Source: a virus
Lineage: Duplodnaviria; Heunggongvirae; Uroviricota; Caudoviricetes
Length of the DNA: 18,456 nt
Reading direction: 5' to 3' (one strand)
IMG/VR virus record: IMGVR_UViG_2713896795_000004
Location: 1-18,456 of that record
Shown: positions 2,703-18,456 of the stretch, piece by piece
Position numbering within the stretch: the first letter of the stretch is position 1
How the letters are laid out: each line of letters starts with the position of its first letter
Translations under genes and position numbers: made by a program
The notes under the pieces: generated by a model
Told to the model about the DNA's origin: nothing
The model's database searches: none
What the model saw: only the letters and a program-made list of their open reading frames with translations

Positions 2703-4549
<1,847 letters not shown>

Positions 4550-4974: not shown

Positions 4975-5544
4975 ATGGCAAAAAATAAAGACGATGGAAC
5001 CCGTTACACATATACGGAAATTGCCGAAAGATTTGGCGTAGAAATTAGTACCGCTTCGCGTATCTGGTCTGGAAAAGGACTGGATATTAACTGGCCTAAA
5101 AAATTAGTGGATCAGTGGTTACTAGCGAACGTAATCGAACCTATGCGTAATGGCGATGTAAAAGGAATGATTCATAAAGCTACACTACGCAAACTAGAAG
5201 CAGAAGCAGACCTGAAAGAATTAGAACTACGTCAACAATCGGGTGAACTAATTCCCGTTGCAGTAGTACAGCAAACATTATCACAATACTTCTATCAATT
5301 AAGACAAGTATTAAGAAGTATTCCCACATCAAGTTATGTTGAACTATTTGAATCACAGGACGCATTAGAATTAAAAATTAAATTACAGGATAAAATAGAC
5401 CGCCAGTTAGAAGAGATTGGCAGCTATGAATATGAGGGAACATATGAAGAACAACTATCAGAAGATGATGAAGGTACTAACGAGGGCGGCGAAATCAATC
5501 CTACCACCGAAGAAACAACTACCAGCGGAATGGGTAGAGAATAA
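4975..5544 (+). CDS. terminase small subunit (Nu1-like, N-terminal HTH), 189 aa
   Basis: N-terminal HTH-like segment YTYTEIAERFGVEISTASRIW, coiled-coil middle, acidic C-terminus. Sits immediately upstream of and overlapping the large terminase. AGGAAA before the ATG. Confidence 0.6.
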   Translation: MAKNKDDGTRYTYTEIAERFGVEISTASRIWSGKGLDINWPKKLVDQWLLANVIEPMRNGDVKGMIHKATLRKLEAEADLKELELRQQSGELIPVAVVQQTLSQYFYQLRQVLRSIPTSSYVELFESQDALELKIKLQDKIDRQLEEIGSYEYEGTYEEQLSEDDEGTNEGGEINPTTEETTTSGMGRE

Positions 5545-7345
5545 CCTAGTCTTCCCAGACGGCGAGCTACAGGGGCAAAGGGTCAAATTATTTGAGTTCC
5601 AAAAAAAGCCCTTGAATGACATAGTAAATCCCCGTATTCGTAAAGTGGTACTCATGAGTAGTGCTCAACTTCTCAAAACAACTGTACTTCAGAATAGTAT
5701 GTACTACTTCCTGGCAAATGATCCAAGTAACATGATCTTTGCGGGTGCAACTGGCGGTACTACAAGTAAGTTCCGTACTGGTAAATGGCAGGCAGTCATA
5801 GAGGCATGTTCGGTACTAAAGAATCTAGTAAGTAATAAGAATGATAAGAACTTTACTAATAACGATAAGACACAACAAAATTTAGATGGTACTTTTACTT
5901 ACTTTCTAACATTGGGTAGTAGTGCACAACTTCGCGGCCTGACAGCACCTCGCATATTTCTTGATGAAATATCCAACGTGGACGCGAGCGGGGATGAAGG
6001 CAACCCCCTGAAGCTAGCAGAACAGCGTACAAAGGCTTTTAGTAATCCCCTTATTATGTGTTGTTCTACTCCCCTTGATGAACATGACCTGATTACACAA
6101 CAGTACGAACAAAGTAATAAACAGAAGTTTTATGTACCGTGTCCACACTGTAACCACTCTCACGAATTAGTTTTTGAAAACGTTAAGTTTGACTGGAAGA
6201 TTATAGAAGGCGGTCGCCGCCGTATTCCTGATGCCGACACTGCAAGGCTAGAATGTCCAAAGTGTAGTAATGAAATCACAGAAGCCGAACGTGTACGAAT
6301 GATTCGTAAAGGAGAATGGATTGCAACAGCACCAGAGATTAAGGATATAGCTGGCTATCATGTCTCCCGCTTGTACTCTCCTATCAACTCTATCAAATCA
6401 ATTGTTGCCGACTTTGCCGAAGCACATTATACATTTGACCTGGCATCATTCTATAACAACGTATTAGGACTGCCATATATTGATAAAGAGAATAGCGAGC
6501 ATGACTTAGTATTATTAGAGAATCTAAGAGATAGTGAAATTGATATTGAAAATATACCAGATGATGTACTAGGGATCGTAATGGGCGTGGACCAGCAGCT
6601 TGATAGGTTGGAAATAAGCACACTAGGAGTAAGTGAAAAGAATCTATATGTACTTGATCACCGTAGTATCTACTCAATTGACTGTACTAAAATCGAAGCC
6701 CCAGCATGGAATAAGTTAACGGCCTTTGCAAATCATCCATTTAAAACACGTTCAGGTAAACCATTGAAGGTACTAGCCGGATTTGTCGATAGTTCAAACG
6801 GCAACGCAACCAGTACCGTGTACCGTTATTGCTCTAACTCTACTATCTTTAAACCTATCAAGGGTGGTACATCAAATACTAACCCACTATTCAAAGGTAG
6901 TACGGCTGGTGGTCACTCCCTGATTAACCTTAACCTTAACGTTAACTTAGGCAAGACTAACGTTAGACAGTTATTAAACCGTGCTGTATCAGATAATGAA
7001 AATAGTAAGGAAGTACAGATTCACTTTAGCCATTCAGTACCAGATGATTACTTTATTCAGGTTACATCAGAGAAGCGAGTAATAAAGGCTGGGGCGTGGG
7101 TATGGGTGAAGAAGATTAGTAGTGCACGTAATGAAACCTTAGACTGTTTAAACTATGCATTAATATGTTTCCAGTGGTATCTATCTAAGTTAGGTAGTCA
7201 ACCATACCGCCAGTTAAGGGAATATAACGCTAAACAAAAAGAGAAAGCAGGACTAAATAAAGAAGTAAATACAGAAGAAGCACCAACTAAGCCAACTCCT
7301 AAGCGAGTAATAAGGCCGCGTAAGGGTGGTGGTTTCTTTAAATAA
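5417..7345 (+). CDS. terminase large subunit, lambda GpA family
   Basis: Recalled similarity to lambda gpA: PAEWVENNLVFP...FEFQKKPLN versus lambda TAVEWADANYYLP...LPFQRAIMN; Cys/His cluster YVPCPHCNHSHEL...CPKC versus lambda HVACPHCGEE; GVDQQLDRLEI versus GIDSQLDRYEM. The track start at 5417 is TTG; in-frame ATGs at 5426, 5432, 5444 and 5465 are alternatives, so the start is uncertain and overlaps the terS 3' end. Confidence 0.85.
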   Translation: MAAMNMREHMKNNYQKMMKVLTRAAKSILPPKKQLPAEWVENNLVFPDGELQGQRVKLFEFQKKPLNDIVNPRIRKVVLMSSAQLLKTTVLQNSMYYFLANDPSNMIFAGATGGTTSKFRTGKWQAVIEACSVLKNLVSNKNDKNFTNNDKTQQNLDGTFTYFLTLGSSAQLRGLTAPRIFLDEISNVDASGDEGNPLKLAEQRTKAFSNPLIMCCSTPLDEHDLITQQYEQSNKQKFYVPCPHCNHSHELVFENVKFDWKIIEGGRRRIPDADTARLECPKCSNEITEAERVRMIRKGEWIATAPEIKDIAGYHVSRLYSPINSIKSIVADFAEAHYTFDLASFYNNVLGLPYIDKENSEHDLVLLENLRDSEIDIENIPDDVLGIVMGVDQQLDRLEISTLGVSEKNLYVLDHRSIYSIDCTKIEAPAWNKLTAFANHPFKTRSGKPLKVLAGFVDSSNGNATSTVYRYCSNSTIFKPIKGGTSNTNPLFKGSTAGGHSLINLNLNVNLGKTNVRQLLNRAVSDNENSKEVQIHFSHSVPDDYFIQVTSEKRVIKAGAWVWVKKISSARNETLDCLNYALICFQWYLSKLGSQPYRQLREYNAKQKEKAGLNKEVNTEEAPTKPTPKRVIRPRKGGGFFK

Positions 7346-7356
7346 GGAAAAATAAA

Positions 7357-7848
7357 ATGGCAATAGTTCGCAAAGTAACCCTAAGAGGCGATATCTTTAA
7401 AGGCGAGACTATTACATTCGACTACCCCGCAGGATCGGAAATTGATTTGATTGATCCTAACGGGGTAAAGACTTCATACACATACCCTTTCCCAGCTATT
7501 GATACTAGTAACTGGGATGCAGGTGTCTGGACTGCAATTATTAACAGTACCGTAGCGTATGGCGTACAACAATTCGAAGTAATAGATCCAACTTCAAAGG
7601 CGTCCGAATATAACGACCTGATGCAAATCATTAAAGATATTGATCAGATCATCATGGACAGAATTAAAGGCGGTGGTGTACTAAGTCAATCAATCCAAAA
7701 TAAATCATTAACATATGAAAGTAGTGAAATACTTATGAAGTTACGCCCTGTTTATGTCAGTCGTGCAAATGATTTACTTTCGGATATGAAAGGCTTTAAT
7801 ACTGGATGCCCTATTAAATCAATTACTACATTTAGGAGATCTCGTTAA
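7357..7848 (+). CDS. hypothetical protein between terminase and portal (163 aa); possible head-completion or accessory head protein
   Basis: AAGGA RBS and ATG start; its stop overlaps the portal start (TAATG). Function inferred from position only (lambda has gpW at the equivalent place). Confidence 0.45.
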   Translation: MAIVRKVTLRGDIFKGETITFDYPAGSEIDLIDPNGVKTSYTYPFPAIDTSNWDAGVWTAIINSTVAYGVQQFEVIDPTSKASEYNDLMQIIKDIDQIIMDRIKGGGVLSQSIQNKSLTYESSEILMKLRPVYVSRANDLLSDMKGFNTGCPIKSITTFRRSR

Positions 7849-9350
7849 TGTTCGGATGGAATAAAAAGAAAGTAGAAGAACCTAAACAAAAAGTTTTAGT
7901 ACAGAAGCCAGTGAAGCTAATGAAGAACAACCCTATGAAGCGTGCAATGTCTTCCCTGAATCTAGGATCTTCTAGTCCTGTTATCTCCTTTGGTTTCACG
8001 GGTGGTAATCAGGCAGGTAATATTAACGCCATCATTAACCGTACTCTACCTGTTATGGTTGCCGTGAGTCGTGAACTCTCGATTAAGAATGGTATTGTTA
8101 AGAAATATGTTTCTACTAACTCAGCAGGTGTAACAGGTGCGGATGGCCTATACATTCGTCCATGTACTCACTCTTCTGATAGTGAACAGGTTAACCAGTC
8201 AATCGATAAACAATTAGAAGATGCCTTCTATGCATGGGCGGAAGATCCTAAAGCCTTTTCACGTTGCGGTACTCTGGATATTAGTACCTTCCAACGTCTA
8301 GTAGAACGTACTCGTTCAGTAGATGGAGATTGTTTCATTCGTATTCACACTAAACCAGGTGAACTACCACAGGTTGAGATCATCGATTCAATGCGTATCT
8401 CTACCTATGAGAACCAGCTACTACCATCAGGTAACTATATTAGTAATGGTATCGAATTTGATATTAATACTAACCGTCCTGTAGCGTACTGGGTAACACG
8501 TTATAACCCTATCATGTATAACTATATGATTGGAGAACGTGAACGCGTACCAGCAGATGAAATTCTACACCTGTTTCAACAGGACTACCCAACGCAGCAA
8601 CGCGGGATACCTGATGTACATTCCGGTACTGAAAAGTTAAAAGAGCTAGAAGAGTTTATGTCAGCGGCAATTACTTCCCGTAAGGTTGCAGCGTCCGCAA
8701 TGGCATTTATCACTAATCCAGATAGTGACGATGTTCAGCTACTGACTGATGACAGTGTTTCGTACTATGATCAAGACTATCTAAATCCGGCTGCAATCGT
8801 AGAACTACAAGCAGGACAAGATATTAAAACAGTAAACCCAACTCAAACCACAGATGGAATTGATGAGTTTATTAATAACCAATTAATGATGATTGCAATG
8901 GGCTTGGATATTACAAAACAATCACTAACATCAGATACTAGTAATGCTTCATTCAGTGCAGCAAAACTGACTGATAAATTACAACAATCAACATTTAAAA
9001 GCCGCACTAATGCTTTAATTGTTTCGGTACTAAAACCTCTTTATATTGCATGGCTAAAATCTGCAATGCTAAATAGTAGTACGTTAAGCAATTTAAATTT
9101 TAGTGATTTTAATAAATTAACCCATGCACAATATGTACAGACTCGTCAAATCTCCCTTGATCCATTAAAAGACCTTCAAACCGAAGTATTAGCAATTGAT
9201 AACGGTTTAAAGAGTAAGGCAATGGTAATTTCAGAGATGGGATACGATCCTGTTATCGTCATGGAAGAGATAAAAAAGGAAAACAAGGAAAATGGAATTG
9301 AACCTGAACAAGAACCAGATGAGGGCGATCAATCTAACGCAGATCAATAA
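7848..9350 (+). CDS. portal protein (lambda gpB-like), 500 aa
   Basis: Canonical position after the large terminase, appropriate size, AGGAGA RBS. Weak recalled similarity to the lambda gpB region around ...NPAAIVELQAGQDIKTV...MIAMGLDITKQSL. Acidic C-terminal tail. Confidence 0.7.
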   Translation: MFGWNKKKVEEPKQKVLVQKPVKLMKNNPMKRAMSSLNLGSSSPVISFGFTGGNQAGNINAIINRTLPVMVAVSRELSIKNGIVKKYVSTNSAGVTGADGLYIRPCTHSSDSEQVNQSIDKQLEDAFYAWAEDPKAFSRCGTLDISTFQRLVERTRSVDGDCFIRIHTKPGELPQVEIIDSMRISTYENQLLPSGNYISNGIEFDINTNRPVAYWVTRYNPIMYNYMIGERERVPADEILHLFQQDYPTQQRGIPDVHSGTEKLKELEEFMSAAITSRKVAASAMAFITNPDSDDVQLLTDDSVSYYDQDYLNPAAIVELQAGQDIKTVNPTQTTDGIDEFINNQLMMIAMGLDITKQSLTSDTSNASFSAAKLTDKLQQSTFKSRTNALIVSVLKPLYIAWLKSAMLNSSTLSNLNFSDFNKLTHAQYVQTRQISLDPLKDLQTEVLAIDNGLKSKAMVISEMGYDPVIVMEEIKKENKENGIEPEQEPDEGDQSNADQ

Positions 9351-11154
9351 TGCAATTGATGAAGCTGATAGAACTGTAGAACTCTCCTTTGCCTCAGAAA
9401 TTCCAGTAGTACGCGACATTAAAGGGACTCTCTATAATGAGATCCTTTTATGCAGTCCTGAAAACGTAGACTTAAGCCGTCTTAATGACGGTGCACCTGT
9501 ACTAGTAGAACATGATGCAATGCGTCAAGTTGGTATAGTTGAGAATGCTCGCGTAGATATGGATAAAGTTTGCCGTGCTACTGTACGTTTTAGTGCACTT
9601 GGAACAGCAAATACTATCTTCGGTATGATCTTAGAAGGTATTCGCCCTAAAGTGTCCGTAGGTTATAACATCTTAGATTATCGTATTGATGGTAATAACC
9701 TAATTGTTTCAAAATGGGAACCCTATGAAATATCCAGTGTTTCGCAGCCAGCGGACAACTCAGTTGGGGTGGGAAGATCACTAAATAGTAATGAAGAAAT
9801 CACACTAGAGGATCTACCCAAAATGGAGCAAGAACAAAAAGAAGAACTAGTACAGGAAGTTGAAGTTATTAAGGAAGTACAGGAAGAAGAAGTACAAGCC
9901 GAAGTAATCGAAGAAGAAGTAGTAGTTCAGGAAGAATCAGTAGAAGTAGTAGAAGAACCGGAAGTAATTGAGGAAGTACAGGAAGTACAACCTGAATTAG
10001 TAGAAGAACGTTCTATTGCAATTACTGATATTCAAGAAAGCATAAATAAAGAAGTAGAAGCAAATCGTATTCGCGAACTTCAATCTATTTCTTTGGTACT
10101 AGGTGTTAGTACAGAAGAAGCAATTAACAACGGTGTAAGCGTAGAAGACTTTAAACGCTCACTAAATAAAGATAATAAATCAATTGATAAGGATATCAAA
10201 AAAATGGAAAAGAAATCTCTAATTAACGAAGGTCTACGTAGTCTAAAAGGTGAAACTCATGATCTAGAAACCTTCGAAAAAGGTGCACGCGGTTATAATG
10301 CAGACCTAAACGCTATGGTACGTTCTACCGCTGATACTACTTCTACTGTAACCGCAGCAGGTCTAGTAAAAGAAGAACTAGCAGACGCGTATATTCGTCA
10401 ACTACTCGCAGCTACTGTACTGGGCCAACTAGATGTAACTGTTTTTGGTGGCCTAGCGGGACGCGGCAATTTCTCTATCCCACGTGCTAAAGGTATGAAC
10501 CCAGCAGCTAAGTTTTACAATGAAGATGAAGCAGTATCCGACGGCTTCGAAACCTTCGATAAGATCACTCTAAAGCCTCGCATGTTCGCAGCAGGTATCA
10601 AGATCACTAAAGCAATGCTACTAAGCAACGCAGCTACCGAACGTTATGTTACCGACGAGCTATTACGCCAATGTTCTAACGGTCTAGAGTCCGCAGTATT
10701 TGCACAAATCGCTACTACTGTACCAGTACAGCAAACCGCTGTATCCGGTCAAGTATCCGAAGCAGACGTACAGAAAGCTATCGAAGCTATCTCCGCGAAA
10801 AACGTTGATATCAATCGTTGTGTTGCTATCGTGCATCCTTCTATGCTCGCTAAACTACGTCAAACCGCGGTATTGAATAACACCGCAGCAGTTGCAATGG
10901 TAGCTGGTCATCGTTATGACATGTGGCTAAACGACGAAGTACGCGTAATTGAATCTACTTTCGTAGCAGCAGATACTATTCTAATTGGTGACTTCTCTGA
11001 ACTAATTTTCGCTAACTGGAACGAAGGTCAAGAACTAGATTTTGATGATACTACTTACCGTGCAGCACAAACTATCGCTATCAGAAGTTTTCAGTACCTC
11101 GACGTAGCTATTGCACACGAAGAAGGATTTGTACTACTACAACTAAAACCATAA
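9292..11154 (+). CDS. fused prohead protease / acidic scaffold-like linker / HK97-fold major capsid protein (620 aa)
   Basis: N-terminal domain with candidate catalytic His in LVEHD (His74, nt 9511..9513) and Ser-containing segments. Acidic E/V/Q-rich repeat linker (aa 178-240). C-terminal domain with HK97-type MCP pattern: VAIVHPSMLAKL...MWLNDEVRVIESTFVAADTILIGDFSE compared with recalled HK97 gp5 IVLNPRDWHNI...MWGLPVVPT...FTVGGFD. Start may instead be the ATG at 9319. Confidence 0.7.
   Translation: MELNLNKNQMRAINLTQINNAIDEADRTVELSFASEIPVVRDIKGTLYNEILLCSPENVDLSRLNDGAPVLVEHDAMRQVGIVENARVDMDKVCRATVRFSALGTANTIFGMILEGIRPKVSVGYNILDYRIDGNNLIVSKWEPYEISSVSQPADNSVGVGRSLNSNEEITLEDLPKMEQEQKEELVQEVEVIKEVQEEEVQAEVIEEEVVVQEESVEVVEEPEVIEEVQEVQPELVEERSIAITDIQESINKEVEANRIRELQSISLVLGVSTEEAINNGVSVEDFKRSLNKDNKSIDKDIKKMEKKSLINEGLRSLKGETHDLETFEKGARGYNADLNAMVRSTADTTSTVTAAGLVKEELADAYIRQLLAATVLGQLDVTVFGGLAGRGNFSIPRAKGMNPAAKFYNEDEAVSDGFETFDKITLKPRMFAAGIKITKAMLLSNAATERYVTDELLRQCSNGLESAVFAQIATTVPVQQTAVSGQVSEADVQKAIEAISAKNVDINRCVAIVHPSMLAKLRQTAVLNNTAAVAMVAGHRYDMWLNDEVRVIESTFVAADTILIGDFSELIFANWNEGQELDFDDTTYRAAQTIAIRSFQYLDVAIAHEEGFVLLQLKP
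9823..10011. repeat. low-complexity acidic coding repeat (GAAGAA/GTAGAA-rich) inside the capsid ORF
   Basis: Translates to MEQEQKEELVQEVEVIKEVQEEEVQAEVIEEEVVVQEESVEVVEEPEVIEEVQEVQPELVEE; the DNA is built from imperfect gaagta/gaagaa units. Confidence 0.7.
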
Positions 11155-11166
11155 GGTACTTTCACT

Positions 11167-11487
11167 ATGAGGCATTTTACTAGCAATCAAATTGATTCTA
11201 CTTTTCTAAATGCCTTTGGTGAACCTATCACAATTAACGGGGCGACGTTCAAAGCTATTTTGGACAATCGCCCCGTAGTCATAGATAGCGGTACTGAAGG
11301 ACTAGTAGAAAGTACAGAAACATTTCTATCAGTGAAGACTGACGATCTAACTACTTTCAGTATCGCAATTGATTCCGAAGTAGTAGTACAGGGTACAAAT
11401 TACACTGTATACAATATCTATAATGATTTGAGCGGTATTTGTGAAGTTTACATAAGACCATCAACAATTAATAATTACGGGTGGTAA
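11167..11487 (+). CDS. hypothetical protein (106 aa); head-tail connector/adaptor candidate by position
   Basis: ATG ORF directly after the capsid gene, in the size range of HK97-like head-tail connector proteins. No motif evidence. Confidence 0.4.
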   Translation: MRHFTSNQIDSTFLNAFGEPITINGATFKAILDNRPVVIDSGTEGLVESTETFLSVKTDDLTTFSIAIDSEVVVQGTNYTVYNIYNDLSGICEVYIRPSTINNYGW

Positions 11488-11488
11488 T

Positions 11489-11884
11489 ATGGGACTATTA
11501 AGCGACGTACAAAAGACAATTAGAACCAGTCTGAATAATATCATGCCAATTCGAAAGGCAATGAATATCCAGGCAGGTAAAGATCTATTCATCTTAGTAT
11601 CAGTAAATCAGACATATTCACCAACCAACTTTGGCACACAACGCCAGACAGGAACATTCGATTTCCAATTTCTCCTAGTACCGGAACCATCAGTACAACT
11701 TCCCGCCGATTCCTACGGTACTATATTCGAATACTTCCGTACTAATACTATTAAAGAGTTTAAAGATAATAACGTCACTCTACTTTCTTATGAGTTTCAA
11801 GATAGCGAACAGGTAACAGATCCAACTACTGGCTATCAATCGTTATCGTTTGCAATAAATATTGTAGCAACTCAAAAACCATAA
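11489..11884 (+). CDS. hypothetical protein (131 aa); head-tail joining candidate by position
   Basis: ATG 1 nt after the previous stop (tightly coupled). Position-based call only. Confidence 0.4.
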   Translation: MGLLSDVQKTIRTSLNNIMPIRKAMNIQAGKDLFILVSVNQTYSPTNFGTQRQTGTFDFQFLLVPEPSVQLPADSYGTIFEYFRTNTIKEFKDNNVTLLSYEFQDSEQVTDPTTGYQSLSFAINIVATQKP

Positions 11885-11896
11885 GGAATATAGATA

Positions 11897-11924
11897 ATGA
11901 GTGATAATATTTTTACTGGTAGTG
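11897..11924 (+). pseudogene. 5' stub of a gene cut by IS2 (9 codons, MSDNIFTGS)
   Basis: AAGGAA RBS at 11883..11888, ATG at 11897, reading frame runs straight into the IS2 terminal inverted repeat at 11925. Confidence 0.35.
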
Positions 11925-11935
11925 TGGATTTGCCC

Positions 11936-12841
11936 CTATATTTCCAGACACCTGTTATCACTTAACCCATTACTGGCCCGCTGCCGTAGATATTCCCGTG
12001 GCGAGCGATAACCCAGTGCACTATGCGGATGCCATTCGTTATAATGCTCGAACGCCTCTGCAAGGTTCTTTGCTGCCGTTAACCCGTCTGGTTTGGGCAT
12101 GATACTGATGTAATCACGCTTTATCGTTTTCACGAAGCTCTCTGCTATGCCGTTACTCTCCGGACTCCGCACCGCCGTGTTCTTCGGTTCAAGTCCCAAC
12201 ATCCGGGCGAACTGGCGTGTTTCATTAGCCCGGTAGCATGAACCATTATCCGTCAGCCACTCCACTGGAGATGTCGGAAGCTCGCTGCCGAAGCGGCGTT
12301 CCACCGCTCCCAGCATGACGTCCTGTACTGTTTCACTGTCGAAGCCGCCCGTAGTGACCGCCCAGTGCAGTGCCTCACGGTCACAGCAGTCCAGCGCGAA
12401 CGTGACTCGCAGTTTTTCTCCGTTATCACAGCGGAACTCGAACCCGTCAGAGCACCATCGTTGATTGCTTTCTTTCACGGCCACTTTGCCAGTATGTGCC
12501 CGTTTCGATGGCGGTACAGCGGTTTTTCGCTCAAGCAACAGCGCATTCTGGCGCATGATCCGGTAAACACGTTTGGCATTGATAGCAGGCATACCATCAA
12601 GTTCGGCCTGTCTGCGAAGCAGCGCCCATACCCGACGATAACCATACGTGGGCAGCTCTCCGATAACATGGTGTATACGGAGAAGCACATCCGTATCATC
12701 TGAGTGACGGCTGCAGCGACCATCTTTCCAGTCATCGGTTCGTCTGAGAATGACGTGCAACTGCGCACGCGACACCCGGAGACAACGGCTGACTAAGCTT
12801 ACTCCCCATCCCCGGGCAATAAGGGCGCGTGCGCTATCCAC
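11936..12841 (-). CDS. insD: IS2 transposase OrfB (InsD), DDE integrase-like catalytic domain, 301 aa
   Basis: Matches recalled InsD sequence. Overlaps insC in the -1 frame at the AAAAAAG slippery site, so the InsCD fusion would arise by programmed frameshift. GTG start. Confidence 0.9.
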
Positions 12842-13164
12842 TTTTTTGCACGCCCATATTCAACGGCTTCTTTAAGGAGTTCATTTTCCATCGTTTTTTT
12901 GCCGAGCAGGCGCTGAAGTTCTTTAATCTGCTTCATGGCAGCAGCAAGTTCAGAGGCAGGAACGACCTGTTCTCCTGCGGCCACAGCAGTAAGACTTCCC
13001 TCCTGGTATTGCTTGCGCCATAGAAATAACTGGCTGGCTGCCACACCGTGTTGCCGGGCAACAAGGGAGACCGTCATTCCCGGTTCAAAGCTCTGCTGAA
13101 CAATAGCGATCTTTTCCTGTGTAGTACGCCGTCTGCGTTTCTCCGGTCCTAAGACATCAATCAT
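12799..13164 (-). CDS. insC: IS2 transposase OrfA (InsC), HTH DNA-binding protein, 121 aa
   Basis: Translation from the ATG at 13164 matches recalled InsC ([56 protein letters not shown]...). The track ORF extends further 5' to an upstream alternative start. Confidence 0.9.
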
Positions 13165-13256
13165 CTGTTCTCCAATGACTAGTCTAAAAACTAGTATTAA
13201 GACTATCACTTATTTAAGTGATATTGGTTGTCTGGAGATTCAGGGGGCCAGTCTAG

Positions 13257-13784
13257 AAAGGTAAATGCATCCCACGAGATTTAAAGGTTAACGAAACAAA
13301 CGCTGACTATCTTTTCCGTAAGTTCGGTGAACTTGAATCAAAACTCAACGAGCAGCGTGAGTATTACGAGGGCGTTATCTCGGATGGGAGTAAGCGTATT
13401 GCTGAACTGGAGAAAAGCGAAGAGCAACTCATCAACGAGCGTGACCATGCTGAGTCTGCTTTAGCTGATATGTACTTTGCAGCAACCGGTAACAGGCCGG
13501 AGTGGAGCAACTGGTTCGGCTTTTCAGATGCTGTCGATGCCGTGGTTGACAGAATAGCTGATTTAGAAGCTAAACAGCCATCGCCGGTAGTGCCGGATAA
13601 TGCATCAGGGTCGCTTGCTTATGCTTACAAAGAGCTTACGCCTGAGATTATGCGCGGTCATATCGCTGTATTCGAGCGATATGGAATAGCCCCAAACGAT
13701 AGCATTACCACAATTCAGGCACTGCGAATCGCGCTGGATGGTATAGAGCGGAGCAACGCCATGCTTCAGGGGAAAGGAGAGTGA
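13257..13784 (+). pseudogene. N-terminally truncated coiled-coil protein of the lambdoid early-accessory region (possibly Ea22-like), cut by IS2
   Basis: Reading frame is open from the first base after IS2 (stop TAG lies inside the IS2 end at 13254..13256) through 13784, with no start codon near the IS boundary. Coiled-coil-like LESKLNEQREYYEGVISDGSKRIAELEKSEEQLINE. The Ea22 assignment is from memory and weak. Confidence 0.45.
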
Positions 13785-13785
13785 T

Positions 13786-14301
13786 ATGGCGTTAACACAC
13801 AGCGAACTCTGTCAGATTGCGTACAAGTTCCTTAAGCGCAACGGGTTCAAGGTTTGTTTTCATGACCGCTTTATAGCTGTAACCAGTACCGGAGAACAGC
13901 CAGATGCTATGGGATTCAGAAATTCAGCATCATGCCTGATAGAGGCGAAGTGTTCTCGTGCTGACTTGTTGGCAGATAGAAAAAAGCGTTTTCGTAAAAA
14001 TCCGTCTCTTGGAATGGGCGACTGGCGATTCTTTATTAGTGAGCCGGGGATTATTTCAATTGAGGATTTACCACCTGGCTGGGGATTACTTCACGTTGTT
14101 AACGGAAGAGTACGGAAAGTACATGGGTGGCCAAAGGGCAATTGCTGTTGGGGTAATCCTGACGATAAGCCATTTACTGGAAATAAGCAGGTTGAATGCG
14201 ATTACATGTTATCTGCATTAAGGCGCATGGAGTTGAGAGGGCACCTTAATGAAATATATGACGGTGTAATTGTTAATAAGAAAGAAGGAAACGCGGCATG
14301 A
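13786..14301 (+). CDS. hypothetical protein with PD-(D/E)xK-like nuclease motif (171 aa)
   Basis: AAAGGAGAG RBS, ATG 1 nt after the previous stop. Motif ...EQPDAMGF...(12 aa)...LIEAKCSRADL resembles the PD...(D/E)xK core of restriction-endonuclease-fold proteins. Family not assigned. Confidence 0.5.
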   Translation: MALTHSELCQIAYKFLKRNGFKVCFHDRFIAVTSTGEQPDAMGFRNSASCLIEAKCSRADLLADRKKRFRKNPSLGMGDWRFFISEPGIISIEDLPPGWGLLHVVNGRVRKVHGWPKGNCCWGNPDDKPFTGNKQVECDYMLSALRRMELRGHLNEIYDGVIVNKKEGNAA

Positions 14302-15137
14302 CCACTATTACCAAAGAGCGACTGCTGACAATCAAGCAGTGGCGCGAAACATACGGACCTGGTAGCAACGTTGTACTGCCAGCAGAAGAAGCGGAAGAAC
14401 TGGCACGAATTGCTCTGGCATCGCTGGAAGCAAAACCAATAGGTGCTTTCCACATTGCAGAACAGCAGGTCGATGGCACAAGTGACTACATCAAGGATGG
14501 GGAGTGGCCTATTGATAACGGGATAATTGAAGTATACGCCGCTCCGCCAGTGCCGGTAGTACCTGGGGAAATTGCTGATGATTTAATGGAGAAATTACCG
14601 AAAAGTGATGCATGGGCTAATGGGTTTCGTGGTGGCTGGAACGCCTGCCGCGCAGTCATGCTTCAGTCCGGAAACTTTCGGAAAATCCCGGAAGCGTCAA
14701 CCAGCTCTCCGGTAACTCCGCCTCTTTTGCCTGGTGGTTTCACCATTGAGGATGCGAAGGAGTTACATGAAGACCTGGTTCGCAGCCACATAAGCCAGGC
14801 TTTAAGTGGCGAAAAGATGAAAAAGAAAGATCGCGAGGCTGATTTGCGCTGGATTCATGGCGTAATAGTTCAGGCTGCGTGGTTTGTAAAGGCATCACTG
14901 GAGCAGAATGCACTATCGGGCAACTCTCCGGTAACTCCGGATAGTTGGATAAGCTGTAGTGAGCGAATGCCGGAAGAAACGGGTGACATTATTGTTGTTT
15001 CGGATGGCATTGTAATGTCAGGGATTTCTTATTCTCGTCGTGACGGGTTCTATATGGCCGCATTGGAGTACGACGACGACGAACCAATTGACGGTGTAAC
15101 CCACTGGATGCCGCTGCCAGAACCGCCGCAGGGGTGA
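14298..15137 (+). CDS. phage protein with C-terminal DUF551-like domain (279 aa)
   Basis: ATGA start/stop overlap with the previous gene. C-terminal SERMPEE...VTHWMPLPEPP matches the recalled DUF551 signature (ER[ML]PE ... W-x-PLP-x-PP) common in lambdoid early-region accessory genes. Confidence 0.55.
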   Translation: MTTITKERLLTIKQWRETYGPGSNVVLPAEEAEELARIALASLEAKPIGAFHIAEQQVDGTSDYIKDGEWPIDNGIIEVYAAPPVPVVPGEIADDLMEKLPKSDAWANGFRGGWNACRAVMLQSGNFRKIPEASTSSPVTPPLLPGGFTIEDAKELHEDLVRSHISQALSGEKMKKKDREADLRWIHGVIVQAAWFVKASLEQNALSGNSPVTPDSWISCSERMPEETGDIIVVSDGIVMSGISYSRRDGFYMAALEYDDDEPIDGVTHWMPLPEPPQG

Positions 15138-15203
15138 AATGATGCTTGGCCTGAAGTATTTTATGTAATTGGTATTGCTATATTTTTATCTGGGGATAAA
15201 CGA

Positions 15204-15446
15204 ATGTTCTCTCTGATTCAACGTGGTCAGATATACACCGATAGCGCTGGCTATCCAGTAAAAATCATTCGTAGTACTGATCACTCAGTATTCTTCAAGA
15301 GGATGGATGGCTATCCTGGAAGAGTGTGCATCAGAAAATTCAATAATTTATTCGAACACATTGATCACAGAGAATATCACCAGATCCTGGCTGAAACAGA
15401 GCAGGAGAACCATCTGAAAAAATTACGTGCCATGCAAAGGAGATAA
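15204..15446 (+). CDS. hypothetical lambdoid early-region protein (80 aa)
   Basis: ATG ORF in the position occupied by ea-type genes in lambda; no motif evidence. Confidence 0.45.
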   Translation: MFSLIQRGQIYTDSAGYPVKIIRSTDHSVFFKRMDGYPGRVCIRKFNNLFEHIDHREYHQILAETEQENHLKKLRAMQRR

Positions 15447-15526
15447 ACCGGTAAAGGTGTTCGCGATAAAGGTGAATATCGGCAATGAATAACAATCCTC
15501 GAACTCGCGGGGATTTCTTTTATCTG

Positions 15527-15553
15527 AACTCGCTACGGCGAGTTTTGTTTTAT
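15527..15553 (+). terminator. putative intrinsic terminator
   Basis: 7-bp stem AACTCGC / GCGAGTT with 4-nt loop TACG, followed by TTGTTTTAT. Confidence 0.35.
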
Positions 15554-15564
15554 GGAGATGATAA

Positions 15565-15732
15565 ATGCACTTCCGAGTCACAGGTGAATGGAATGGAGAG
15601 CCATTCAACAGAGTTATCGAGGCAGAGAACATCAACGACTGCTATGACCACTGGATGCTGTGGGCGCAGATAGCACATGCAGACGTAACCAATATTCGAA
15701 TTGAAGAACTGAAAGAACACCAATCCGCCTGA
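15565..15732 (+). CDS. small hypothetical protein (55 aa), same size and spacing as the small ORF just upstream of xis in phage lambda
   Basis: Manual translation MHFRVTGEWNGEPFNRVIEAENINDCYDHWMLWAQIAHADVTNIRIEELKEHQSA. GGAGA RBS 7 nt before the ATG; ends 39 nt before xis. Below the ORF-track size cut-off. Confidence 0.45.
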   Translation: MHFRVTGEWNGEPFNRVIEAENINDCYDHWMLWAQIAHADVTNIRIEELKEHQSA

Positions 15733-15747
15733 TGGCGGCTTTTTCTT
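15725..15747 (+). terminator. putative intrinsic terminator overlapping the stop of the 55-aa ORF
   Basis: CCGCC-TGAT-GGCGG hairpin followed by CTTTTTCTT. Confidence 0.35.
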
Positions 15748-15771
15748 GCGTGTAATTGCGGAGACTTTGCG

Positions 15772-15990
15772 ATGTACTTGACACTTCAGGAGTGGAACGC
15801 ACGCCAGCGACGCCCAAGAAGCCTTGAAACAGTTCGTCGATGGGTGCGCGAATGCAGGATATTCCCTCCTCCGGTTAAGGATGGAAGAGAGTATCTGTTC
15901 CACGAATCAGCGGTAAAGGTTGACTTAAATCGACCAGTAACAGGTAGCCTTTTGAAGAGGATCAGAAATGGGAAGAAGGCGAAGTCATGA
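15772..15990 (+). CDS. xis: excisionase Xis (lambda type), 72 aa
   Basis: MYLTLQEWNARQRRPRSLETVRRWVRECRIFPPPVKDGREYLFHESAVKVDLNRPVTGSLLKRIRNGKKAKS matches recalled lambda Xis. Overlaps the int start as in lambda. Confidence 0.95.
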   Translation: MYLTLQEWNARQRRPRSLETVRRWVRECRIFPPPVKDGREYLFHESAVKVDLNRPVTGSLLKRIRNGKKAKS

Positions 15991-17038
15991 GCGCCGGGAT
16001 TTACCCCCTAACCTTTATATAAGAAACAATGGATATTACTGCTACAGGGACCCAAGGACGGGTAAAGAGTTTGGATTAGGCCGAGACAGGAGGATAGCAA
16101 TCACTGAAGCTATACAGGCCAACATTGAGTTATTTTCAGGACACAAACACAAGCCTCTGACAGCGAGAATCAACAGTGATAATTCTGTTACGTTACATTC
16201 ATGGCTTGATCGCTACGAAAAAATCCTCGCCAGCAGAGGAATCAAGCAGAAGACACTCATAAATTACATGAGCAAAATTAAAGCAATAAGGAGGGGTCTG
16301 CCTGATGTTTCACTTGAAGACATCACCACAAAAGAAATTGCGGCAATGCTCAATGGATACATAGACGAGGGCAAGGCGGCGTCAGCCAAGTTAATCAGAT
16401 CAACACTGAGCGATGCATTCCGAGAGGCAATAGCTGAAGGCCATATAACAACAAACCCGGTCGCTGCCACTCGCGCAGCAAAATCAGAGGTAAGGAGATC
16501 AAGACTTACGGCTGACGAATACCTGAAAATTTATCAAGCAGCAGAATCATCACCATGTTGGCTCAGACTTGCAATGGAACTGGCTGTTGTTACCGGGCAG
16601 CGAGTTGGTGATTTATGCGAAATGAAGTGGTCTGATATCGTAGATGGATATCTTTATGTCGAGCAAAGCAAAACAGGCGTAAAAATTGCCATCCCTACAA
16701 CATTGCATGTTGATGCTCTCGGGATATCAATGAAGGAAACACTTGGTAAATGCAAAGAGATTCTTGGCGGAGAAACCATAATTGCATCTACTCGTCGTGA
16801 ACCGCTTTCATCCGGCACAGTATCAAGGTATTTTATGCGCGCACGAAAAGCATCAGGTCTTTCCTTCGAAGGGGATCCGCCAACCTTTCACGAGTTGCGC
16901 AGTTTGTCTGCAAGACTCTATGAGAAGCAGATAAGCGATAAGTTTGCTCAACATCTTCTCGGGCATAAGTCGGACACCATGGCATCACAGTATCGTGATG
17001 ACAGAGGCAGGGAGTGGGACAAAATTGAAATCAAATAA
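15968..17038 (+). CDS. int: tyrosine integrase Int (lambda type), 356 aa
   Basis: Near-identical to recalled lambda Int over its whole length (MGRRRSHERRDLPPNLYIRNNGYYCYRDPRTGKEFGLGRDRR ... HELRSLSARLYEKQISDKFAQHLLGHKSDTMASQYRDDRGREWDKIEIK). Catalytic R...H-x-x-R...Y context present. Confidence 0.97.
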   Translation: MGRRRSHERRDLPPNLYIRNNGYYCYRDPRTGKEFGLGRDRRIAITEAIQANIELFSGHKHKPLTARINSDNSVTLHSWLDRYEKILASRGIKQKTLINYMSKIKAIRRGLPDVSLEDITTKEIAAMLNGYIDEGKAASAKLIRSTLSDAFREAIAEGHITTNPVAATRAAKSEVRRSRLTADEYLKIYQAAESSPCWLRLAMELAVVTGQRVGDLCEMKWSDIVDGYLYVEQSKTGVKIAIPTTLHVDALGISMKETLGKCKEILGGETIIASTRREPLSSGTVSRYFMRARKASGLSFEGDPPTFHELRSLSARLYEKQISDKFAQHLLGHKSDTMASQYRDDRGREWDKIEIK

Positions 17039-17133
17039 TGATTTTATTTTGACTGATAGTGACCTGTTCGTTGCAACAAATTGATAAGCAATGCTTTTTT
17101 ATAATGCCAACTTAGTATAAAAAAGCAGGCTTC
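17039..17133. other. attL: lambda P' arm plus 15-bp core (reverse complement of GCTTTTTTATACTAA at 17112..17126) joined to the bacterial B arm
   Basis: Sequence TTTTATTTTGACTGATAGTGACCTGTTCGTTGCAACAAATTGATAAGCAATGCTTTTTTATAATGCCAACTTAGTATAAAAAAGCAGGCTTCA matches the recalled lambda attL/P' arm, with the core directly followed by host sequence leading into ybhC. Confidence 0.9.
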
Positions 17134-17172
17134 AACGGATTCATTTTTCTATTTCATAGCCCGGAGCAACCT

Positions 17173-18456
17173 GTGAACACATTTTCAGTTTCCCGTCTGG
17201 CGCTGGCATTGGCTTTTGGCGTGACGCTGACCGCCTGTAGCTCAACACCGCCCGATCAACGTCCTTCTGATCAAACCGCGCCTGGTACCTCTTCTCGCCC
17301 GATTCTGTCGGCAAAAGAAGCGCAGAATTTCGATGCTCAACACTATTTTGCATCCCTGACACCAGGTGCGGCAGCGTGGAATCCTTCCCCGATTACCCTG
17401 CCTGCGCAACCTGACTTTGTTGTCGGCCCGGCGGGTACTCAAGGTGTAACGCATACCACGATTCAGGCGGCGGTAGATGCGGCAATTATCAAGCGTACCA
17501 ACAAGCGCCAGTATATTGCCGTGATGCCTGGTGAGTATCAGGGAACGGTGTATGTCCCTGCCGCTCCGGGTGGAATTACTCTATACGGTACAGGTGAAAA
17601 ACCGATTGATGTGAAGATTGGGCTTTCCCTTGATGGTGGCATGAGCCCTGCCGACTGGCGTCACGACGTCAACCCGCGCGGCAAATATATGCCAAGTAAA
17701 CCGGCGTGGTATATGTACGATAGCTGCCAGAGTAAACGCAGCGACAGTATCGGTGTTCTCTGCTCTGCGGTCTTCTGGTCACAAAACAATGGCCTGCAAC
17801 TGCAAAACCTGACCATCGAAAACACGCTGGGCGATAGCGTAGATGCGGGTAACCATCCGGCGGTGGCACTGCGTACTGATGGCGACAAAGTGCAGATCAA
17901 TAACGTCAACATTCTCGGTCGTCAGAACACCTTCTTTGTCACCAACAGCGGTGTGCAGAACCGTCTGGAAACGAATCGCCAGCCGCGTACGCTGGTGACC
18001 AACAGCTATATTGAAGGGGATGTGGATATCGTTTCTGGTCGCGGCGCAGTGGTGTTCGATAACACCGAATTCCGCGTGGTGAACTCCCGTACCCAGCAAG
18101 AAGCGTATGTGTTTGCACCGGCTACGCTGTCCAACATTTACTACGGTTTCCTCGCCGTAAACAGCCGTTTCAATGCTTCCGGTGATGGCGTGGCGCAACT
18201 GGGCCGCTCGCTGGATGTTGATGCCAATACCAACGGTCAGGTAGTGATCCGTGATAGCGCCATCAACGAAGGTTTTAACACGGCGAAACCGTGGGCCGAT
18301 GCGGTGATTTCCAATCGTCCATTCGCGGGTAACACCGGCAGCGTTGATGATAACGACGAAGTACAGCGTAATCTGAATGACACTAACTACAACCGCATGT
18401 GGGAATACAATAACCGCGGCGTGGGTAGCAAAGTGGTTGCAGAGGCGAAGAAGTAG
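17173..18456 (+). CDS. ybhC: YbhC, pectinesterase-fold outer-membrane lipoprotein (putative acyl-CoA thioesterase), 427 aa, complete
   Basis: GTG start; lipobox LTAC in MNTFSVSRLALALAFGVTLTACSS; sequence matches recalled E. coli YbhC. Known chromosomal neighbour of attB-lambda. Composition is host-like. Confidence 0.9.
   Translation: MNTFSVSRLALALAFGVTLTACSSTPPDQRPSDQTAPGTSSRPILSAKEAQNFDAQHYFASLTPGAAAWNPSPITLPAQPDFVVGPAGTQGVTHTTIQAAVDAAIIKRTNKRQYIAVMPGEYQGTVYVPAAPGGITLYGTGEKPIDVKIGLSLDGGMSPADWRHDVNPRGKYMPSKPAWYMYDSCQSKRSDSIGVLCSAVFWSQNNGLQLQNLTIENTLGDSVDAGNHPAVALRTDGDKVQINNVNILGRQNTFFVTNSGVQNRLETNRQPRTLVTNSYIEGDVDIVSGRGAVVFDNTEFRVVNSRTQQEAYVFAPATLSNIYYGFLAVNSRFNASGDGVAQLGRSLDVDANTNGQVVIRDSAINEGFNTAKPWADAVISNRPFAGNTGSVDDNDEVQRNLNDTNYNRMWEYNNRGVGSKVVAEAKK

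Follow-up and report, generated by a model that had tools for sequence, protein, structure and literature searches.

The question raised by this locus is what kind of event is recorded by a complete copy of the insertion sequence IS2, the left and right flanks of which belong to two unrelated, truncated genes and differ in the five bases that adjoin the element. The window (the whole stretch of DNA analysed, 18,456 nucleotides) corresponds to positions 321,695-340,150 of contig LFKC01000009.1 (364,558 bp) in assembly GCA_001077955.1 of Escherichia coli HMLN-1. The single IS2 copy present in the window occupies positions 333,619-334,949 of this contig. An exact look-up of the 131-aa protein encoded in the window returned this contig alone. 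E. coli HMLN-1 is a translocating clinical isolate, whose draft genome of 59 contigs was produced with SPAdes 3.0.0 from 2x101-bp MiSeq reads (PMC4552563). The assembly made use of k-mers of up to 71, and neither IS2 nor an inversion is mentioned in the paper describing the strain (PMC4552563).

Anatomy and boundaries of the IS2 element

The element and its immediate flanks are made up of the following features, in window coordinates:

11925-13255, minus strand: complete IS2 of 1331 bp, with its right terminal repeat (IRR) adjoining the tail-fibre stub, its left terminal repeat (IRL) adjoining the ea22-like gene and its transposase read from right to left
11933-11965: matching arm of the right terminal inverted repeat, 33 nt, 79% complementary to 13214-13246
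13214-13246: matching arm of the left terminal inverted repeat, forming an imperfect pair with 11933-11965
12799-13164, minus strand: insC (orfA), 121 aa, from its translation and Pfam HTH_Tnp_1
11936-12841, minus strand: insD (orfB) frame, 301 aa, with Pfam HTH_21, rve and rve_3
12841-12847, minus strand: AAAAAAG -1 frameshift site (A6G), read as CTTTTTT on the plus strand
11920-11924: TAGTG, the left flank of IS2 and the last 5 nt of the tail-fibre stub
13256-13260: GAAAG, the right flank of IS2, native to the ea22-like gene and different from TAGTG

The length of 1331 bp, the terminal sequences (left end TGGATTTGCCCC... and right end ...GGGGCCAGTCTA of the stretch 11925-13255), the overlapping orfA and orfB frames with their A6G -1 frameshift site and the HTH and rve domains identify the element as IS2 of the IS3 family, and in all of these features it resembles the IS2 of E. 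coli. When the -1 fusion is rebuilt at the A6G site, the resultant protein is 409 aa in length, as is the gene called on the source contig. The copy is a variant, ~96% identical to the K-12-type IS2 (52 differences), and has an R151C change in OrfAB, three private substitutions and no 5-bp duplication. Its nearest counterparts in complete E. coli genomes are 99.6% identical over the full length; five differences separate it from these, including the three substitutions, which are absent from all copies compared. An origin of the element by recombination between two IS2 variants was discarded, as the five changes relative to the nearest copies are scattered single-base changes and do not form a block. 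An exact look-up showed that InsD alone is not on record.

Insertion of IS2 generally results in a 5-bp duplication of the target site. Three control IS2 copies with identical TGGATTTG...CCAGTCTA ends are each flanked by a perfect duplication of this kind (tattc, aaaac and atgag), indicating that the boundaries of the window copy are correct and that the missing duplication is real. The lack of a duplication is a property of the insertion event and provides no argument against the identification of the element as IS2. The two flanks share only an offset GGTA, and no homology able to drive the join, in the form of a repeat of at least 20 nt linking both sides, was found. An earlier note, made from the sequence alone, had described a complete 1331-bp IS2 with both ends, insC/insD and the A6G site, mismatched 5-bp flanks and a jump in composition from AT-rich to about 50% GC. 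The sequence and Pfam domains bear out the first of these statements and the control copies, which share the same ends and are perfectly duplicated, lend weight to the second and dispose of the mis-set boundaries that the note had named as a possible source of error. The measured GC content rises from 0.37-0.39 to the left of IS2 to 0.46-0.50 to its right, in agreement with the third.

Two prophages in opposite backbone orientation

On either side of the element the window contains parts of two prophages, denoted here as A (left) and B (right):

4975-11884, plus strand: head module of prophage A, with terS, terL, a 163-aa ORF, portal, capsid, head-tail joining protein and a 131-aa ORF
11897-11924, plus strand: tail-fibre stub of 28 nt (9 codons, beginning with ATG, and 1 nt), with an AAGGA ribosome-binding site upstream
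13257-13784, plus strand: 5'-truncated ea22-like ORF, with 175 codons kept and 38 nt missing, and a weak Pfam Ead_Ea22 match
13786-17107, plus strand: early-left arm of prophage B up to attL, with a 171-aa ORF, DUF551, DUF4222, xis and int, from Pfam
15772-15990, plus strand: excisionase, Pfam Exc
15968-17038, plus strand: lambda-type integrase, Pfam Arm-DNA-bind_1 and Phage_integrase
17108-18456, plus strand: backbone at att-lambda, consisting of an intergenic stretch and ybhC (17173-18456), running opposite to K-12

To the left of the window the contig carries opgC-opgG-opgH-yceK-msyB, followed by a serine recombinase and the AT-rich phage genes. The recombinase, a protein of 620 aa encoded beside msyB and outside the window, marks the start of prophage A. 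The backbone on this side matches K-12 from 1,108,911 up to 1,114,166 in the forward direction and ends 15 nt before the msyB start, and prophage A is integrated in the 5' end of msyB. Its head genes are recognised by Pfam on the source contig (GpA_ATPase/nuclease, Phage_portal_2, Phage_capsid and Phage_attach). The head module shows ~86% DNA identity to its relatives, and every alignment stops at 11923, 1 base before IS2. Only two relatives of the stretch 10900-11924, at ~81% identity, are found in the complete E. coli genomes, and the phage collection holds no near match to the head module. One relative of prophage A, in another E. coli, is 33 kb in size, likewise encodes a serine recombinase and is integrated inside yegD.

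The stub (MADQIFTGS...) aligns with the start of a tail-fibre gene coding for 1022-1244 aa in L001, L005 and L013, where the gene continues past the break as GGTTTTAAATTA... This gene is located between the head and tail genes, has a full length of 3-3.7 kb and is intact in every relative found. In the window, the frame of the stub extends into IS2 and gives rise to a chimeric ORF of 22 aa. On the opposite side of the element, comparison with E. coli A26 and L045 puts the loss from the ea22-like gene at 12 codons and 2 nt relative to its intact relatives, which begin with ATGAAACAAATGTCACTAATTGAGATGGATGGTTTTCT before the break point and GAAAGGTAAATGC after it. The truncated ea22-like ORF is itself a mosaic of two gene types.

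The gene order of the prophage B arm is that of the intact prophage of E. coli A26, which occupies the same site. Homology to K-12 resumes at window position 17108, and 17108-18572 matches K-12 from 807,346 down to 805,881 with 96.8% identity. The right backbone as a whole, with ybhC and ybhJ, descends in K-12 coordinates from 807,346 to 801,096, and is thus in reverse. Position 807,346 falls in the gap between ybhC and ybhB, which is the integration site of lambda. The lambda-type integrase and the excisionase adjoin this intergenic site, identifying prophage B as a lambdoid prophage at att-lambda.

The backbone across IS2 therefore ascends K-12 on the left to 1,114,166 and descends from 807,346 on the right, and two loci far apart on the chromosome meet, in opposite orientation, at an IS with hybrid flanks, as in an IS-mediated inversion. 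Starting from a gene order like that of K-12, neither an insertion nor a deletion yields flanks running in opposite K-12 directions, and the junction as assembled has the form of an inversion endpoint. The inverted segment would measure ~334 kb on the contig and ~307 kb in K-12 coordinates (807,346-1,114,166). The junction is not a simple insertion, as the flanks are unrelated truncated genes of two different prophages, nor can they be two halves of one gene, with the 5' end of a tail-fibre gene on the left and an ea22-like gene short of 38 nt on the right.

Alignment of the flanks to relatives, a check which the earlier note had put forward, returned two unrelated genes. The tail-fibre alignments agree with its description of a left gene that starts at 11897 with a ribosome-binding site and ATG and is cut after 9 codons. 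Its right-hand ORF does lack the N-terminus, although the open frame begins at the second base past the element (13257) rather than at the first. The fusion of an AT-rich head module to a lambda-type arm also holds for the contig as assembled, with the two arms now anchored at msyB and att-lambda. From its broader proposal of a deletion, an inversion or recombination between copies, the K-12 backbone directions retain the inversion endpoint and remove the deletion. The note had not considered that a short-read assembler, rather than the cell, may have made the fusion.

Possible origins of the junction

The reading tentatively favoured here, if at somewhat less than even odds, is that the window IS2 is one endpoint of a large chromosomal inversion with its breakpoints in two different prophages. 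One IS2 would have inserted 28 nt into the tail-fibre gene of prophage A, with duplication of TAGTG, and a second would have inserted 38 nt into the ea22-like gene of prophage B at att-lambda, with duplication of GAAAG. Since the tail-fibre gene and the ea22-like gene point in opposite chromosomal directions, the copies would constitute inverted repeats, and homologous recombination between them would flip the interval; intramolecular transposition of an IS2 dimer may provide an alternative, one-step route to the identical product. Each product IS2 would have one flank from each site. The window copy would correspond to stub..TAGTG-IS2-GAAAG..C-terminal part of ea22, and the predicted partner to N-terminal part of ea22..GAAAG-IS2-TAGTG..rest of the tail fibre. 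Inversions of 164 kb to 1.8 Mb arising from IS-IS recombination are well documented in E. coli (PMC4173774). IS2 moves via a figure-of-eight and a minicircle in a copy-out/paste-in pathway in which the donor copy is retained (PMC3299598), and a second IS2 copy is therefore to be expected.

Two prophage regions of HMLN-1 are candidates for the missing halves. Table 2 of PMC4552563 lists a prophage of 35.4 kb with 46% GC at position 1 of contig 9 and one of 17.5 kb with 37% GC at position 1 of contig 10. The former appears to fit the missing part of prophage B, and the latter the missing tail module of prophage A, since 15.8 kb separate the tail-fibre start from the prophage end in the relative, against 17.5 kb here. 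From the contig 9 prophage to the msyB prophage there is ~282 kb of backbone, compared to 307 kb in K-12. A tRNA-Lys-TTT insertion site is given for the contig 10 region (PMC4552563). This site was probably taken from the end of the contig before it, as contig 9 extrapolates to ~781.5 kb in K-12, inside the tRNA-Lys(UUU) array. Both partner segments would then be located at contig ends, as expected of a short-read assembly interrupted by a repeated IS2. If there are two copies, contigs 9 and 10 would each be predicted to open with a piece of an IS2 end no longer than 71 nt, the k-mer overlap of SPAdes. Behind this piece, contig 9 should read CTTTCAGAAAACCATC..., the 5' portion of ea22 up to and including GAAAG in reverse complement, and contig 10 should read TAGTGG(T/A)TTTAAA..., the remainder of the tail-fibre gene. 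The published table is consistent with the second copy with reciprocal flanks that the earlier note had asked for. The anatomy of IS2, its hybrid flanks, the identity of both truncated genes and the opposite directions of the backbone are thus shown, whereas the second IS2 copy, and the existence of the join in the cell and not only in the assembly, are inferred.

Several observations count against the inversion. An identical second IS2 would normally have stopped the assembler at the element, the orientation is not provable from the contig alone, given that pairs of such short reads are not expected to reach across 1331 bp, and the junction is shared by none of the other recorded assemblies. 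An inversion of 300 kb inside one replichore is also expected to carry some fitness cost. The reciprocal junction was not seen; homologue searches with the tail-tube protein, a variable 130-aa tail protein of a relative and the first 320 aa of the tail fibre, the last of which missed even close relatives, did not bring up GCA_001077955.1, and neither did subsequent exact look-ups and a listing of cluster members. A scan of IMG/VR with the capsid protein recovered relatives at no more than 95-96% identity, with HMLN-1 not among them.

A chimeric contig ranks only slightly behind a real inversion in likelihood, because a pair of inverted IS2 copies gives one and the same assembly graph for both orientations, and it is accordingly a substantial possibility that HMLN-1 is collinear with K-12. 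The strain would then harbour two ordinary IS2 insertions in inverted orientation, with TAGTG and GAAAG each duplicated, and SPAdes would have taken the wrong exit from the repeat. The 2x101-bp reads, the use of SPAdes 3.0.0 with k up to 71 and the 59 contigs are consistent with such a mis-join, as an inverted repeat longer than the insert size is expected, from the structure of assembly graphs, to produce the same edges in both arrangements. The predicted partner segments both lie at contig starts, as expected if the IS2 node was used once, and a collinear backbone, which most E. coli genomes display, would entail one biological event fewer. The junction is unique to the HMLN-1 assembly; the IS2/right-flank junction occurs in none of the complete E. 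coli genomes in the collection, and a junction-spanning ORF of 51 aa is on record only for the source contig.

The behaviour of the assembler, however, also argues in the other direction. SPAdes by design halts at repeats that it cannot resolve, and its read-through suggests that some supporting information was available. Should the five differences in the window IS2, three of them private, be absent from the second copy, the two copies would be identical over no more than ~760 bp at a stretch, a distance that read pairs of long insert size could span correctly. The locus resembles repeat-induced chimeric short-read contigs in having a 1.3-kb repeat, longer than the expected insert, inside the contig and the partner segments at contig ends, but differs in that no direct sign of mis-assembly was obtained for the HMLN-1 contig. 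GC skew was not used in this comparison, as a mis-join and a recent real inversion would look alike by this measure.

An improbable third explanation invokes one IS2 only, either through an older inversion followed by an IS2-adjacent deletion of the tail genes and most of prophage B, or through a single IS that bridges distant loci. The contig reads straight through IS2, as would be expected of a single-copy sequence, and joins of distant loci by a single IS have been validated with long reads, although these concern amplification in direct orientation and mostly IS1 (PMC13423834), whereas the window flanks are inverted. More events are needed than in the other explanations, the copy-out/paste-in minicircle pathway of IS2 leaves a donor copy behind (PMC3299598), and contigs 9 and 10 are both listed as starting with prophage DNA of the right size and GC content, so that the missing halves appear not to have been deleted. 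The stricter form of this explanation, in which a lone IS2 truly bridges inverted loci 307 kb apart with no reciprocal IS, is more improbable still. Such a bridge, if true, would be the inverted counterpart of the non-canonical junctions formed by a single IS1. Replicative transposition is not known for IS2, an IS3-family element.

An IS2-mediated deletion within a composite prophage or between adjacent prophages, with loss of the intervening DNA, is highly unlikely. A single IS with mismatched flanks is the classic signature of an adjacent deletion, and automated prophage callers would probably call one prophage from the head genes and integrase. The arms are, however, anchored 307 kb apart with their backbones in opposite directions, which contradicts a deletion, and the head genes are transcribed toward the lambdoid integrase, opposite to the lambdoid layout of the intact relative. 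A simple insertion with misread boundaries or a degenerate duplication, which has in its favour nothing beyond the general 5-bp rule for IS2, is refuted by element ends identical to those of the duplication-bearing controls and by flanks that share merely the offset GGTA and belong to unrelated genes of differing GC content (0.38 versus 0.47).

Relation to known rearrangements

Prophage-associated inversions of E. coli O157:H7 were reportedly described by Iguchi et al. in 2006, with prophage DNA, going by the title of that work, as the recombining homology. The inversion favoured here for HMLN-1 would be like these in its large size and in having both endpoints inside prophages, but the two HMLN-1 prophages are unrelated and the homology would be supplied by IS2. 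The inversions in the E. coli long-term evolution lines (PMC4173774) likewise feature an IS with hybrid flanks that joins distant loci in opposite orientation, and a size of ~0.3 Mb falls within their range. The HMLN-1 case, by contrast, involves IS2, has both of its breakpoints within prophage genes, concerns a clinical isolate and is known from one junction in an assembled contig.

The non-canonical junctions reported by Yelin and Kishony 2026 (PMC13423834) are in direct orientation, border an amplified segment and are ascribed to replicative transposition of IS1. The HMLN-1 junction is similar in that the two ends of one IS abut distant loci with no matching duplication. It differs in that the window flanks are inverted, so that the direct orientation of single-IS-bridged amplification does not apply, and in that IS2 employs the minicircle pathway (PMC3299598). 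Structures of this type are the usual mark of an IS at the breakpoint of a rearrangement, and nothing in the present one is new in kind, either on IS2 or on the mechanisms of rearrangement.

If the inversion is real, the locus would provide a natural example of IS2 flipping ~7% of the E. coli chromosome within one replichore. Two prophages would have been split into four halves and both disabled, with each integrase end parted from its partner attachment site. In the lambdoid prophage, the xis-int arm would be severed from the remainder of the early-left operon, and the AT-rich phage would be left without its tail module. If the inversion is not real, the contig would serve as a cautionary example of an assembly artefact. 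Long reads are needed before a hybrid-flank IS in a short-read contig is accepted as a structural variant. In either case, the apparent prophage with head genes and an integrase is a composite of two unrelated phages, which prophage-calling tools would probably read as one prophage.

The OLD-family nuclease gene and repeats of the AT-rich prophage

The AT-rich prophage that makes up the left arm of the window carries a gene for an OLD-family nuclease, as well as two repeat regions, one of which falls within the capsid ORF:

2505-2576: tandem array of the 7-nt unit TAATGAG, 10.3 copies, perfect (100% matches)
2703-4523, minus strand: OLD-family nuclease (606 aa) with AAA_15/AAA_21 and OLD-like TOPRIM domains
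9292-11154: capsid ORF (620 aa), carrying a Phage_capsid domain
9829-9990: run of imperfect repeats with many GAA and GTA triplets, inside the capsid ORF and ahead of the Phage_capsid domain

The top PADLOC model for the 606-aa nuclease is 'Old' (E=1.5e-74). The gene stands alone in a stretch with a GC content of 30-35%, its neighbours are encoded on the opposite strand, and there is no sizeable adjoining ORF that might represent a partner gene. This lack suggests that the nuclease gene represents single-gene defence cargo resembling P2 Old. A few other E. coli genomes also have the gene, at ~92% identity, but not the rest of the AT-rich phage. The TAATGAG array is located in the AT-rich gap directly 3' of the nuclease gene; tandem arrays of this kind can differ in length. 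The portal ORF and the capsid ORF overlap by 59 nt.

Prophage insertion sites in HMLN-1

The opposite end of the AT-rich prophage is located on the source contig, in the stretch extending to the left of the window (L004):

L004 4896-7131: serine-recombinase end of the AT-rich prophage and msyB

A 620-aa serine recombinase has inserted the prophage within the 5' end of msyB, whereas in a relative, whose serine recombinase is a different one, yegD is the gene that is split. Although homology to K-12 ends 15 nt ahead of the msyB start, the msyB ORF is still called full-length on the source contig despite the prophage, and the phage end thus appears, from the ORF call, to provide msyB with a new start.

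The HMLN-1 genome paper (PMC4552563, Table 2) names 'tRNA-Lys-TTT' as the insertion site of the prophage region with which contig 10 opens. The end of contig 9 extrapolates to ~781.5 kb in K-12, within the tRNA-Lys(UUU) array, and the contig 10 entry may for this reason merely reflect where the preceding contig ends. A like explanation may apply to the prophage region that opens contig 8.

The IS2 copy and the ORFs at its ends

The IS2 element joining the two prophage arms (11925-13255) shares ~96% identity with a K-12-type copy. Three substitutions (IS positions 791, 992 and 1097) are absent from every copy compared, OrfAB carries an R151C change, and none of the copies in a set of 5,426 complete genomes of E. 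coli is identical to this one. One short ORF spans each end of the element:

11897-11962: chimeric ORF (22 aa), the tail-fibre stub running into the IS2 right end

The second, a 51-aa ORF annotated on the source contig, runs outward across the left end of IS2 and terminates after 9 nt of flanking sequence. The two ORFs probably arose as by-products of the junction and have no meaning of their own.

The truncated gene to the right of IS2 (13256-13784) is a mosaic of two gene types. Over the first 76 nt it matches the 5' portion of a gene from other lambdoid prophages that encodes 122 aa, and over the rest of its length the 3' portion of an Ea22 gene, a composition consistent with a common N-terminal module among the genes of the ea22 region.
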